Of a stretch of 30,176 nt of DNA, positions 1,853 to 18,207 are shown piece by piece. The notes under the pieces were generated by a model. The model did no database searches. It was given only the letters and a program-made list of their open reading frames with translations, and had not been told where the DNA came from. Each line of letters opens with the position of its first letter. Position 1 is the stretch's first letter. The stretch comes from Candidatus Nanoarchaeia archaeon (GTDB taxonomy: Bacteria; Patescibacteriota; Saccharimonadia; UBA4664; DATIHE01): positions 1-30,176 of the forward strand of contig DATIHE010000026.1 of the NCBI GenBank assembly GCA_035481015.1, read 5' to 3'. Both the position numbers and the translations under genes were made by a program.

Positions 1853-2458
1853 CTACTTGGCTTTCTGACGGTTGTCTTCACAGTACTGGGCACTAAACTG
1901 GTCGTGACAAACCTGATAACCAACGATAGTGGCCAAGGTTTGCGATAAACGCAGGTTGATTCCGAGTTGCGGCGGCACGACTTTGATGATCACTGGCACC
2001 GTGCCGGCGCCCAGGTCTTCAATTACACGAAAAGCGCCGCGCGACAGATCTAGCTGTCGGCCAGTCCAAGCCTCGGGCCCATAATCGTTAACCAAGCAGA
2101 TAACTGAGCGGCCATTTCGGCGATTAGTTATCTGTAAGTAAGTGCCGCGCGGAAAGGTTGTCGAGGCACAAGTTAGCGCATCGGGTGCCGGTAAGCCAAA
2201 GGCGTACCAAGATGCCACGCCTACCTGGTCGGCACCGCTGACAGGTGAAATATCAGTAACTTTGGTAGTACTCGAGTTAGGCTGGATCTTTATGTTAACC
2301 GTCGGCTTGGTGGTGGTGATGGCAAAGGCTAACGAACCAGTAGCAACGGCGCCAACCACTATAAACACTCCGCGCAACAAATGCTTAGAATGCCTCTTGT
2401 GCAGAATTTTCTTGCGAGTTAGTAGGTGTTTTATTTTCTTTTTGGTTTTAGTTCGCAT
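1853..2458 (-). CDS. RlpA-like double-psi beta-barrel protein (septal ring lytic transglycosylase family), membrane anchored
   Basis: GVASWY...TCAS..FPRGTYLQITN..NGRSVICLVNDYGP...RQLDLSRGAF; basic N-terminus followed by a TM helix. Confidence 0.85.
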   Translation of the reverse strand: MRTKTKKKIKHLLTRKKILHKRHSKHLLRGVFIVVGAVATGSLAFAITTTKPTVNIKIQPNSSTTKVTDISPVSGADQVGVASWYAFGLPAPDALTCASTTFPRGTYLQITNRRNGRSVICLVNDYGPEAWTGRQLDLSRGAFRVIEDLGAGTVPVIIKVVPPQLGINLRLSQTLATIVGYQVCHDQFSAQYCEDNRQKAK

Positions 2459-11390: not shown

Positions 11391-11592
11391 AGGTGGTCGC
11401 TTGCCGCCTGCGAATCGAGAATTATAGCCGATTTGAGATTGGCTGGCAACATCTGGGCACCTTAACCATGTTCCCTTCGCCCCGGCACGTCAAACCAAGC
11501 TTTAGCTGTTTGGCGGGCCGAGAGGAGAAACGCGACGAAAGCCGGAGTAAGTTTATCAGAACTTATGCAGGCTGCAGTGCGCGTTTCGACGA
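11391..11592 (+). ncRNA. Candidate structured non-coding RNA upstream of tRNA-Leu (identity unknown; 6S-like length)
   Basis: End-to-end stem 11398-11411/11567-11581; hairpin CGGC-A-CGTCAAAC...GTTTGGCG-G-GCCG (11483-11520); TAAGTT/AACTTA hairpin; G-U pairs favour the + strand. Confidence 0.5.
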
Positions 11593-13410: not shown

Positions 13411-13439
13411 AAAAAGAGAGCCGCTTATTCTAGCGGCTC
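13411..13439 (-). terminator. Intrinsic terminator overlapping the stop of 13425-13643
   Basis: Minus strand GAGCCGCT-AGAATA-AGCGGCTC-TCTTTTT. Confidence 0.7.
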
Positions 13440-14937: not shown

Positions 14938-15348
14938 TTAACCAATAAGGGCTAAGTCGCCATTTATTACTAACGGCTCCATGCCTAGTAGCTCATCTCG
15001 TAGTATGTTGTCTGGGATGGGATTGAGTAAGAATATTTTTCGATTCATCTCGAAAGCTTTAAAGATCTCAAGAAAAGTTGCTCCACCGATATAGTTGGGC
15101 TGTCCGTCTTTTTCGAGATTCAGGACTAAGATGGCGTCGTTAGCCTCGATCTTGCGATTTTGCTCGCGGATCATTTCGGCCTTCCAGCTGCTGTGAGCCT
15201 TGGCGCTAACTGCGCGCACTTCGTCTTCGCGTCCTGGGTTATCAAAGCTATTGGGTAAAGTTATCGTATGCCCTGCCGCCTCAAGGGTGCGTTTGACGGC
15301 CTCAACCTGGGGGTAAAAGGCTTTGCTGCAACAGATAAAGATCTTCAT
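14938..15348 (-). CDS. Nucleoside 2-deoxyribosyltransferase-like protein
   Basis: MKIFICCS..., KIEANDAILVLN..., YIGGATFLE (catalytic-type Glu), RKIFLLNPIP. ATG 15348 overlaps the nuclease stop (ATGA). Confidence 0.7.
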   Translation of the reverse strand: MKIFICCSKAFYPQVEAVKRTLEAAGHTITLPNSFDNPGREDEVRAVSAKAHSSWKAEMIREQNRKIEANDAILVLNLEKDGQPNYIGGATFLEIFKAFEMNRKIFLLNPIPDNILRDELLGMEPLVINGDLALIG

Positions 15349-15956
15349 GATTTTGCCCCGGCTGTTTGCTTGATGTCTTTTGATTCGTCGACATTGCAAC
15401 CGGCCCACAGCCCTAAGTTTTGCTCTCTGGCCTGAAGTTCTGCGGCCTTGAAACCCTCGAGCTTAGAATTCGGGAAGATCGTGTAGGCGAAGGCGTAACC
15501 TTGTTTGACCAGCTCCATGTTCACGAATGTGCCATCGGGCAGGTAAACGTAGCGCAATAAGCGGTGGTATTTGTCGCGGTCGCTATCTAGTGGATCGGCC
15601 TCCAGGCGCACACTTTTTCCGCCCACTAACGATTCAGTTTTCTGGTGAGCCGTTTCGCCAAAGCACTGTACTGGCTTGCGAGGATCTTTGGTTTCTGGCG
15701 TATCCATGCCAATCAGTCGAACAGTCTCTGTTTTGCCATTGCTATCCACCTCTATTGTGTCGCCGTCTACCACCTGTTTTACCGGATACAGCCCGGGCTG
15801 GTGATTCTGGATTGTTGTAGCGGCTCCGGTTAGCTTTTCTGGATAGGTTTTGCCAGCAACCAGTGCGCCAATCAAGAGCAATATTAACCCTGCCAAACTA
15901 ATGTGGCGTCGTCGTGGGAATCGTCGGAGTGGCTTAATTGGTTCTAATTCGTCCAT
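15345..15956 (-). CDS. Thermonuclease (SNase) family protein, membrane anchored or secreted
   Basis: VVDGDTI, VRLIGMDTPE, DKYHRLLRYVY, NMELVKQGYA, AREQNLGLW; N-terminal TM. Confidence 0.93.
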   Translation of the reverse strand: MDELEPIKPLRRFPRRRHISLAGLILLLIGALVAGKTYPEKLTGAATTIQNHQPGLYPVKQVVDGDTIEVDSNGKTETVRLIGMDTPETKDPRKPVQCFGETAHQKTESLVGGKSVRLEADPLDSDRDKYHRLLRYVYLPDGTFVNMELVKQGYAFAYTIFPNSKLEGFKAAELQAREQNLGLWAGCNVDESKDIKQTAGAKS

Positions 15957-16004: not shown

Positions 16005-16038
16005 ACGAGCCCGTCCCAGTATATCGGGACGGGCTCGT
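16005..16038. terminator. Perfect 13-bp hairpin without U-tract after the orphan ORF stop
   Basis: ACGAGCCCGTCCC-AGTATATC-GGGACGGGCTCGT. Confidence 0.6.
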
Positions 16039-16043
16039 TAGTG

Positions 16044-17177
16044 CTAGGCCGCTACACGATGCCAGTTGGGGTCGTTGTAGGGCCGATAACGTAGCCAGAA
16101 GCGGGCCTCGTCGGCCATCGTTTTGGCCCGCATGATGGCCGGCTTCGGGTTGGCCCTCGTCGTCTGCGACTCGAGCACAAGACGCAGGTTGTTCTGGATG
16201 GCTCGCATCGCGCTGGTGACATGAGCGATGACGACCGCCGTTGGTTCGAGCGGCTCGTAGGTGCCCAGCAGGCGGATGCGGCGATCGAGGCGGTTAATGA
16301 CCTGGGGGGCGTTGGTAACTAGCCAAGGCTGGCTTTCACGCAGCACAGTGCCGATTACGCGCAGGCAGTAGCCCTGTGTACCCTCGAAGCCGTAACTTTC
16401 GGCTAGCCGCCGGGTGAAGCCTCTGTCGCCCATGTTATAGCCCTGCTCGGCCATGCGTTCTTGCAGTCTGACGACGAAGCTCCAGGGCTTGTCGTAGCCA
16501 ATGCCGCCGGCGGCCCGCCACAGCTTGCTCATGGCGTTGGTTGCCGACAGTCGTGATGACGTCAGCAGCTCGTAGACGGCGTTGGCGTGTCGGTTGTCGT
16601 ACTCGAACCGGTCGGTCCAGCTGGTTTGCTGAGCATTAGAGATGCCGGCGATCCGTCCAGCGATTTGCTGCCGGTCGCGCAGGTCCATGGCAGCTAGCTC
16701 ACTTTGCCGAGCGGCAGCCCGCATAGCGTCGTCGTTTGGCTCCAGTACGTCGATCGCCTGGCTGATGTGGTCGATAGCGTCGATCTTCTCCAGGCTGCGG
16801 GCGCGGCCCATGCCGCGACGGGTTGTCCGCAGTAGCCGTCGCTGACGAGCTAGCTCGTCTTGCCGCAGATCGAACAGCCTGTCGGCGACGTTGGTCATTA
16901 CCCAACGACGCTGGCCGATGGCGTGGTAGTCCAGTATCTCCCAGTCGATCTGGACGCGCAGCTTGGCTACCAGTAGCTCAACCGTCAGGAACTGGTCGGT
17001 ACCGGCTGTGACGTTGGGCGCCCACAGCTCGCCGAACAACGGTGACCACCTGGGCTCGCGAACATGCGTTGGGTGATAGCCGTGGGCCCTGACCGTGTAG
17101 GTCGGTCCCTCGGGCAGTCGCATCTCGGCGACTTTGTCTTCGCGCAGAGTGATAGTGGTGACCTTTTGCCTAGCCAT
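16044..17177 (-). CDS. GC-rich, Arg-rich orphan protein (377 aa)
   Basis: SD GGAGAG before ATG 17177 (MARQKVTT); a sampled 60-nt block is 63% GC; no recognisable motif. Confidence 0.8.
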   Translation of the reverse strand: MARQKVTTITLREDKVAEMRLPEGPTYTVRAHGYHPTHVREPRWSPLFGELWAPNVTAGTDQFLTVELLVAKLRVQIDWEILDYHAIGQRRWVMTNVADRLFDLRQDELARQRRLLRTTRRGMGRARSLEKIDAIDHISQAIDVLEPNDDAMRAAARQSELAAMDLRDRQQIAGRIAGISNAQQTSWTDRFEYDNRHANAVYELLTSSRLSATNAMSKLWRAAGGIGYDKPWSFVVRLQERMAEQGYNMGDRGFTRRLAESYGFEGTQGYCLRVIGTVLRESQPWLVTNAPQVINRLDRRIRLLGTYEPLEPTAVVIAHVTSAMRAIQNNLRLVLESQTTRANPKPAIMRAKTMADEARFWLRYRPYNDPNWHRVAA

Positions 17178-17225
17178 TGCTCTCCAATCGGGGAAGTAAC
17201 TCAAGGTGCACGGATGGTTGGTAAC

Positions 17226-17249
17226 AAAAAACGAGCCAAAATTGCTCGT
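17226..17249 (-). terminator. Terminator-like hairpin inside the 5' leader of the orphan gene
   Basis: Minus strand ACGAGC-AATTTTG-GCTCGT-TTTTT. Confidence 0.5.
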
Positions 17250-17300
17250 ACATTGCCCGAGAACCCACCCAACCAACCGTCGAACTATTCCGATGCGCCG

Positions 17301-17329
17301 ATTTTAGCCAAAAACTGCTAATTTTTCAA
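17301..17329 (-). promoter_or_regulatory. Sigma70-type promoter for the orphan gene
   Basis: TTGAAA-17 nt-TAAAAT on minus strand, ~120 nt upstream of ATG 17177. Confidence 0.7.
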
Positions 17330-17352
17330 GCATAAGAACGCTCACCCGCTCC

Positions 17353-17361
17353 TGTTATAAT
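17353..17361 (+). promoter_or_regulatory. Extended -10 promoter TGTTATAAT
   Basis: TGTTATAAT-GAGCCA-ATG. Confidence 0.7.
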
Positions 17362-17367
17362 GAGCCA

Positions 17368-18207
17368 ATGAAGCTTATTGGAACCCTTGGCCTGGCAGTT
17401 GCCATATTTTTCGCTAGTCTAGCCTCGCTGCCCGCCTTTGCCCACCTGGGTGGTGGTTCGCCGTTTGTGCTGTTGAACCAAGAGTACGCTCAAGCCAATC
17501 CCCTTACCGGCCTCGACCCAGATATTTCGCTCGATGCACCGCCGTCGGTTTATACGGTTGGTCAGCCGATTAATTTCTCGATTGATCGCAACATTTTTGG
17601 CTCACCCGATCTGCAGTTCCGTTGGATTTGGGACAAAGGCGGCCAGCCCGAATTGGGTGACAACCTGAACCATACCTACAACCAGGTCGGCATGCACAGG
17701 CTTACCTTGGATATTAAAAATGACCCCACGACCGACTTTAGTTTGATCGACAGCATTAATGTGCCGGTGACACCGACCAGCGGCTATAAATTACCCACCA
17801 CCAAGGTCGCTATCCGTAATTCCAAGCAAAACGCCAAAGGTTTTGTGGCTACTTTTGAGGCTGTTGCCGAGGCGGACAAATCGTCCAAAATTACCAAGTA
17901 CCAATGGAAGTTTGGCGATGGCCAGAGCGCCGAAGGCCAGGTAGTGACCCATCAGTTTGAAGGCAAGGAATTCCGGCTCTTCCCTATGCTGCACCTGGAA
18001 GACTCTAACGGTTTGACTGCCGATGCTGCTTTTGAGGTCGATAACGGTAACAACGCCCTGCAGTCCTTTGACATTCAGGGGTTAACTGTTCTGGTCTCTC
18101 CTACTTCATCCCATCGTGATCGGCCTAAGCCTGTTTGGCTAATCGCTGCTGTCGTTGTAGGTGGTGGTATTTTATTCGGCTTCTTGGAACTGGCAAAAAG
18201 AAGCTAG
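17368..18207 (+). CDS. Surface protein with PKD domains, signal peptide and C-terminal TM anchor
   Basis: Signal peptide ending AFA|H; PKD signatures FRWIWDKG...HTYNQVG and YQWKFGDG..EG..VTHQF; C-terminal hydrophobic helix followed by KRS. Confidence 0.8.
   Translation: MKLIGTLGLAVAIFFASLASLPAFAHLGGGSPFVLLNQEYAQANPLTGLDPDISLDAPPSVYTVGQPINFSIDRNIFGSPDLQFRWIWDKGGQPELGDNLNHTYNQVGMHRLTLDIKNDPTTDFSLIDSINVPVTPTSGYKLPTTKVAIRNSKQNAKGFVATFEAVAEADKSSKITKYQWKFGDGQSAEGQVVTHQFEGKEFRLFPMLHLEDSNGLTADAAFEVDNGNNALQSFDIQGLTVLVSPTSSHRDRPKPVWLIAAVVVGGGILFGFLELAKRS

Follow-up and report, generated by a model that had tools for sequence, protein, structure and literature searches.

The stretch of DNA analyzed here (the window; 30,176 nt) is the entire contig C26 of the source genome G000, a Saccharimonadia assembly within the Patescibacteriota comprising 638 kb in 70 contigs and estimated to be 86% complete; in the labels used below, P denotes proteins, G genomes, C contigs and L loci. 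On the minus strand of the window, an open reading frame (ORF) at positions 16047–17177 encodes P0001, a product of 377 amino acids (aa) that is rich in arginine (12.5%) and has an isoelectric point (pI) of 9.97. Together with the stop codon (16044–16046) the coding sequence spans 16044–17177. The ATG at 17177 is taken as the start instead of a longer frame opening with TTG because the relative P0002 begins at the same place, and a Shine-Dalgarno (SD) motif, GGAG (17182–17185, minus strand), lies 4 nt 5' of this ATG. The SD and the arginine-rich ORF had both been described in the original prediction, made from the letters of the window alone, and both are found where it placed them. The ORF is a genuine protein-coding gene, and sequence comparisons assign P0001 to an undescribed, phylum-wide protein family of the Patescibacteria, also referred to as the Candidate Phyla Radiation (CPR).

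A word-indexed search of 5.8 billion proteins returned one relative, P0002, which is 57% identical over its full length and shares the start, and a later, third search of this type contributed one further sequence. Single-sequence phmmer against 1.84 billion representatives recovered four relatives in total, the three beyond P0002 at 26–33% identity; the same range covers P0003 to P0006. A profile of these relatives detected a copy in G012, the nearest genome of the same order (E 9e-18), which is only 21% identical to P0001, whereas SNase, LigA and GatA of the same two genomes are 62–72% identical. In G412, a genome of another class, a weak profile match corresponds to P0013 (395 aa), which is connected to the G012 protein by BLASTP (2e-8) and by a common DSLGR[IL]NPS motif, and which in turn led as a query to seven additional genomes. 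With a 15-sequence profile the family was identified in 16 of 401 sampled Patescibacteria genomes, and alignment of its two subfamilies with hhalign gave a probability of 86% (E 5e-6) over 262 collinear columns. Within the order of the source genome, two of 53 genomes carry the gene. The source labels of the relatives' proteins are Saccharimonadales or Parcubacteria metagenome-assembled genomes, and scans of metagenome, genome and viral contig collections for the DNA of these relatives yielded no confirmed locus. The earlier description of P0001 as an orphan is not strictly correct: a single-sequence search provides four relatives only, but the profile searches uncover the wider family.

Members of the family are mostly around 380–400 aa long (some around 615 aa), basic (pI 9.5–10) and devoid of a signal peptide or membrane segment. 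Four residues, K131, A134, R169 and P231 (the “KPW/F” motif), are near-invariant in the family alignments A5 and A6, and P0001 has all of them. Most members, including those of G012 and G412, also contain a “D-x-x-G-R-x-N-P” loop, located between long helices three and four; since the aligned loop reads LEPN in P0001 and LEPS in P0002 and departs from this motif, the motif marks a subgroup and not the family. Family genes change very fast, and ORFs of similar length are intact in 20 relatives with identities down to 11–15%. Two members of 610–618 aa come from a single CPR family (L051, G618:C1, 1204–3033; L052, G402:C15, 274–2127) and possess an additional N-terminal region of approximately 230 residues that has no Pfam match.

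Structure prediction with AlphaFold 2 (AF2) depends strongly on the depth of the alignment. The predicted local distance difference test (pLDDT) rises from 63.5 with five sequences to 87.1 with 20 (predicted template modeling score 0.77), and this rise is evidence of a co-evolving protein. In the model, four short strands within residues 6–64 are followed by helices at residues 66–103, 106–123, 129–144 and 149–206, and the C-terminal part forms a second helical bundle that extends to residue 363. The predicted fold can be summarized as a small N-terminal beta domain joined to long helical bundles; the original prediction had described a helical-looking protein without a recognizable motif. Neither P0001 nor the relatives tested match Pfam, PHROGs, NCBIfam or PADLOC, and none of six members is matched by the hidden Markov models of PADLOC-DB 2.0 at E<=1. 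Foldseek searches of both the low- and the high-confidence models against the PDB and of BFVD gave nothing at E<=1e-3, the ESM Atlas gave nothing specific, and a wide structure search with VIA-align returned generic helical bundles only. The best PDB sequence-profile match, FlhF (E 0.019), is judged to be a chance match. An exhaustive aligner superposed residues 65–191 on long bundles of the flagellin/FlgL type (122–127 residues, root-mean-square deviation 2.0–2.6 Å) at Z 10–11.5, where the stated noise of the aligner for helical bundles lies at Z under about 13. Bundles can attain values of this size simply through the way their helices are arranged, and the fold is accordingly treated as unassigned.

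Family genes typically occur as single-gene cassettes with an SD and a strong hairpin just past the stop codon. An SD-like motif was found at 11 of 14 family loci, and at 10 of 14 the stop is followed, at a distance of no more than about 25 nt, by a hairpin that is strong or terminator-like, while a promoter-like site (>=10/12 consensus matches within 200 nt upstream) is present at five of 14, compared to 10% of random 200-nt pieces. The gene in the window fits this build, as it combines a promoter-like site, an SD and a strong post-stop hairpin and has no co-oriented gene upstream; the self-contained unit proposed originally is thus recognizable here and in the relatives. For ten copies the flanking DNA was sufficient to determine the position. 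Three of them (G012, G412, and G406) reside in a slot between ligA and gatCAB, and in an all-against-all comparison of neighbors ligA and gatA/B/C are the only recurrent partners. The P0001 gene lies outside this slot, between a gene for a PKD surface protein and a run of SNase, NDT-like and HIT genes. In G000, the interval between ligA and gatC (contig C28, L027, 188–2640) contains a gene for a 451-aa secreted protein and a small helix-turn-helix gene, and no family member, in agreement with a slot of variable content. The helix-turn-helix gene (1996–2187, minus strand) encodes 63 aa and is excisionase/MerR-like; ligA itself is split across the contig ends C29/C28 and gatA across C28/C6. A comparison with empty sites in relatives was attempted around SNase and PKD, where synteny is not conserved.

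The coding part of the gene has a G+C content of 62.8%, as opposed to 50.8% for the genome, and only one other 1.1-kb stretch in the 638-kb assembly is richer. The G+C content at third codon positions (GC3) reaches 0.77, compared to 0.553±0.054 for 369 long ORFs (z 4.0); the values for the three codon positions are 0.65, 0.47, and 0.77, and the jump in G+C is restricted to the coding part. This property is shared by the relatives. Of 15 genomes with a family gene, 13 have a GC3 in that gene above that of the surrounding ORFs (mean difference +0.126; p=0.002 in a Wilcoxon test) and 14 a total G+C above that of the neighbors, and these 15 comparisons are largely independent because the genomes come from different families. 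The excess is a trait of the family, seen also in copies residing in the slot, and composition alone is therefore no proof of recent import. High expression was considered and rejected as a cause, since ribosomal-protein genes have a GC3 of about 0.56 and MreB, GluRS, CysRS, and S20 lie at 0.52–0.58. Against its synonymous-codon shuffles the native mRNA has a small advantage in stability (z −1.65, 2/30), compared to +0.65 and −0.41 for two control genes, so that the excess is not clearly a signal of RNA structure. Candidate causes are selection acting on the mRNA or, alternatively, GC-biased repair that accompanies frequent exchange.

Other parts of G000 show similar enrichment. Strongly GC3-rich ORFs or islands (GC3 0.77–0.91) are located at C22:2481–3011, C36:1532–2002, C44:8000–9100 (L004, 3000–4100), C58:1079–1732, and C68:882–1625. 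The C44 island is situated immediately upstream of a second HIT gene, which recalls the window, where a HIT gene is found two genes downstream of the P0001 gene. Where tested, these ORFs and islands have no Pfam match. The GC-rich islands were also considered as paralogues of the P0001 gene and dismissed, as one encodes a NAGPA-domain protein and the others are unrelated. The idea that GC3-rich genes of G000 are specifically SD-led was also dropped, given that the apparent enrichment is confounded by composition, a control motif rising as well.

Upstream of the gene, a sigma-70-type promoter-like site, TTGAAA-17-TAAAAT (17301–17329, minus strand), matches the consensus at 10 of 12 positions and is the sole promoter candidate 5' of the gene, with a predicted transcript start at about 17294. 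The strong promoter of the original prediction is present in sequence, but a consensus scan finds sites of this kind no more often than expected by chance (one compared to 1.3 in 2.4 kb). No TAnnnT hexamer was seen between the leader hairpin described below and the start codon. The predicted 5' leader (17178–17294, minus strand) is about 117 nt long, roughly twice the length found in relatives with a recognizable promoter (35–59 nt), and the nested hairpin region constitutes the extra part. At its center lies a terminator-like hairpin, ACGAGC-7-GCTCGT followed by T6 (17225–17249, minus strand), with a 6-bp stem (four GC pairs) and a 7-nt loop. Its folding energy of −7.9 kcal/mol (z −3.5 vs. 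shuffles of the 28-mer) is weak by the standards of intrinsic terminators. The hairpin is enclosed by an outer helix, with its 5' arm at 17269–17280 and its 3' arm at 17210–17221 (both minus strand); a repeat finder recovers the arms as 12 nt with 92% complementarity, and the helix is present in the minimum free energy (MFE) fold of an 81-nt piece. Both elements were therefore described correctly at first, but the nested 81-nt structure is marginal (z −1.9, with nine of 200 shuffles equally good) and the entire leader, folded over 136 nt, is not better than shuffles (z +0.40).

The hairpin is not the terminator of another gene, since there is no co-oriented gene upstream. Terminator-like matches are common in the window (40 vs. 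23±5 expected in 20 kb), and about 58% of them are attributable to chance. No competing antiterminator pairing was found; MFE and centroid folds contain only the nested helix, which is compatible with the hairpin. Among the covariance models of Rfam 15 the leader has no match even at E<=5 and no aptamer was recognized, the sole match across the locus being a chance miRNA match (E 1.6) on the 3' hairpin. A blastn search revealed no second copy of the leader in the genome, and derivation of the leader from the multi-copy tRNA-docked RNA module at 11477–11592 of the window was dismissed, as the two show no similarity. Looking for the leader upstream of homologues, a check proposed with the original prediction, was equally unproductive: an element comparable to the nested hairpin is absent inside the leaders of 13 distant relatives, and the hairpins near their genes precede the promoter or belong to upstream genes. 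The leader is probably not a conserved regulatory RNA. It does contain an upstream ORF of 27 codons, MYEQFWLVFCYQPSVHLELLPRLESNG (17170–17253, minus strand), with its first position 1 nt ahead of the hairpin and its stop codon overlapping the main start codon (ATGGCTAG); no clear SD precedes it. This ORF may be a chance occurrence, or it could couple translation to read-through. In the very distant relative at L039 (G519:C1), the 12-mer GTTTTTTGTTAC follows a weak hairpin about 30–55 nt upstream of the family gene and also follows the hairpin of the leader in the window, possibly by chance, as its T run is of low complexity.

At the other end of the gene, a perfect 13-bp hairpin (16005–16038, minus strand) begins 6 nt past the stop codon. 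It had been noticed at the outset and, with −29.7 kcal/mol and z −7.0, is highly stable relative to shuffles; lacking a U-run, it is a probable transcript end or 3' stabilizer.

The surroundings of the gene are otherwise those of a bacterial chromosome. The divergent upstream gene encodes the secreted PKD protein, the downstream run comprises SNase, the NDT-like gene and HIT, and a Pfam scan of the larger window ORFs identified MreB, a sortase, GluRS, CysRS, a histidine kinase and ABC transporter genes. The scanned ORFs include no integrase, transposase or phage gene, and no direct repeats were found flanking the P0001 gene. The NDT-like gene (14938–15408) has a relative at L036 (G640:C5, 1724–2182), around 5 kb from a family member, and is the only other neighbor common to two family loci apart from ligA and gatCAB. 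At the start of the PKD gene (17346–17370, plus strand; ATG at 17368), an extended −10 element, TGtTATAAT, ends 6 nt before the start codon and there is no SD, so that this gene may be translated from a leaderless mRNA. A TAnnnT hexamer precedes the candidate start by 5–9 nt in about 35% of the long ORFs of G000, a figure obtained without a proper control. Further along the window, a perfect 8-bp palindromic hairpin (13418–13439) scores as a terminator on both strands and lies between convergent or adjacent genes, probably acting as a bidirectional terminator.

How the gene reached its present position can be considered in light of these observations. The copy in the window would represent a long-standing CPR accessory gene in relocated or xenologous form and not a fresh import of a toxin or defense gene; such an origin by relocation or transfer is plausible because the gene lies outside the slot, is missing in 51 of the order's 53 genomes and shares only 21% identity with the copy of G012. 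That a foreign unit with a gene for a toxic, anti-host or defense protein was recently imported by horizontal transfer, as originally envisaged, appears unlikely. Such an import would account for the GC3 of 0.77 (z 4.0 vs. long ORFs) with a jump confined to the coding part, for the patchy occurrence within the order, for the gap between 21% and the 62–72% identity of SNase, LigA and GatA, for the position outside the usual slot and for the company of other GC3-rich accessory ORFs in G000. However, the G+C excess recurs in 13 of 15 members from unrelated genomes, slot-resident ones included, and does not indicate recency; integrase, transposase and phage genes are missing, as are direct repeats on either side of the gene; and viral contigs, PADLOC, PHROGs, and BFVD provide no match and the locus no partner gene. 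The earlier “probably acquired” may hold, though less securely than at first sight: the unusual position and the low identity still count in its favor, but the composition on its own, as a family trait, does not. The toxic, anti-host or defense-type character is unsupported, with no match in PADLOC, Pfam, PHROGs or NCBIfam and no partner, mobile genes or flanking repeats. A toxin-antitoxin module is rejected on account of the monocistronic arrangement here and in the relatives, where no neighbor family recurs besides ligA and gatCAB. The same applies to a target of a diversity-generating retroelement, given that no portion of the gene recurs anywhere in the 638-kb, 86%-complete assembly; the Pfam scan of the larger window ORFs contained no reverse-transcriptase family either.

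Two further alternatives concern RNA. The leader might act as a genuine transcription attenuator or riboregulator, with most transcripts stopping at the hairpin and U-run to give an RNA of about 70 nt and with conditional read-through into the gene. The order of promoter, hairpin with U6, SD, and ATG, with no upstream co-oriented gene to terminate, would fit such a device, and the z-scores of the hairpin (−3.5) and of the nested structure (−1.9), the doubled leader length and the 27-codon ORF that runs from just ahead of the stem to the main start codon point in the same direction. This reading is nonetheless doubtful in view of the 6-bp stem of −7.9 kcal/mol, the z of +0.40 for the whole leader, the lack of an antiterminator pairing or an Rfam family at E<=5, the uniqueness of the leader in the genome and its lack of counterparts in 13 relatives, the 58% or so of terminator-like matches expected by chance and the missing clear SD of the upstream ORF. 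In the preferred explanation, the hairpin and U-run would be at most a leaky terminator, and together with the enclosing helix they may serve as a 5' stabilizer peculiar to this genome. Far less credible is a large structured RNA gene as the main content of the GC-rich 1.1 kb, with an incidental or secondary ORF. The slightly greater stability of the native mRNA over its synonymous shuffles would agree with it, but ORFs of comparable length intact in 20 relatives at identities down to 11–15%, conservation at the amino-acid level with near-invariant K, R, and P residues, the improvement of the AF2 model by a deeper alignment, the codon-position pattern and the lack of an Rfam match all favor a protein, making this idea highly improbable.

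The product is tentatively viewed as a cytoplasmic nucleic-acid-binding accessory protein. This putative role is put forward with low confidence, its basis being the positive charge, the conserved Lys and Arg residues and the repeated proximity to the DNA ligase gene. Taken jointly, a genuine gene of a CPR family, present as a relocated or xenologous copy, with a nucleic-acid-related role and a leaky leader terminator, form the best explanation of the locus, which is held with moderate confidence. Several points weigh against it. The searches of Pfam, NCBIfam, PHROGs, PADLOC and the PDB link the family to no function by homology, and the sole structural resemblance, to bundles of the flagellin/FlgL type, lies below the noise level of the aligner. 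Only three of ten copies adjoin ligA, and this adjacency may have no functional meaning. Relocation and horizontal acquisition both fit the copy in the window, and the profile searches for the family were confined to the phylum sample of Patescibacteria.

Seen on its own, the locus is an uncharacterized accessory gene. CPR genomes are small and rich in unexplained genes, and here a supposed one-off orphan turns out to belong to a family traceable throughout the phylum, with a confident structural model without known counterpart, a recurrent address between ligA and gatCAB and a reproducible compositional signature. This signature cautions against equating GC-rich with recently imported in Patescibacteria genomes. 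A more speculative proposal, which is quite unlikely as it stands, regards the family as a phylum-wide “resident cassette” of CPR bacteria in which the one-way GC3 excess comes from a process acting on the gene itself and not on its product. Hot spots, the ligA–gatC interval among them, could frequently undergo recombination or exchange accompanied by GC-biased repair, or alternatively selection could favor an mRNA that is highly structured and long-lived and has a second role; if so, the protein would serve the maintenance of DNA or RNA in reduced genomes. Finding the cause of the excess or the partner molecule of the protein could provide an explanation for an entire class of accessory cassettes in the CPR.

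Several known systems invite comparison. Residues 65–191 superpose on D1-type bundles of flagellin and FlgL (PDB 9ygu, 4nx9, 5ziy, and 2d4x; Z 10.2–11.5), but sequence identity is 7–10%, the superposition covers one third of P0001 and there is no Pfam flagellin match. Membership among flagellins or hook-associated proteins is rejected, as Flagellin_N and Flagellin_C do not match and the likeness is limited to these residues with Z<=11.5; it is a resemblance of shape and not membership. Attenuators based on intrinsic terminators are found in 5' leaders, as in trp-type leader-peptide attenuation and in the expression platforms of riboswitches and T-boxes. The leader in the window resembles them in its stem-loop and U-run between promoter and SD and in the short upstream ORF abutting the stem, and differs in having a weak stem, no antiterminator alternative that could be found, no Rfam match, no recognizable aptamer or T-box and no regulatory codons in the upstream ORF. 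The ligA–gatCAB interval of Bacillota presumably holds genes of the CamS/YerH type, which we take as a lead only; in three CPR genomes the same conserved interval carries a family gene of about 395 codons. Unlike CamS proteins, which are secreted lipoproteins, the family lacks a signal peptide, and no Pfam family, CamS included, matches any member.

Phage “morons” and accessory-gene cassettes occur in hot spots between conserved core genes. The family shares with them the placement of a single gene, equipped with a promoter-like site, an SD and a terminator hairpin of its own, between unrelated conserved genes, as well as a distinct composition, fast change, a patchy distribution and relatives that recur in the ligA–gatCAB interval. 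In contrast to phage morons, the gene in the window has no phage or mobile-element context and the family persists across many CPR classes. Its compositional offset, moreover, is always toward higher G+C, a one-way shift that would not be expected from simple import from random donors.

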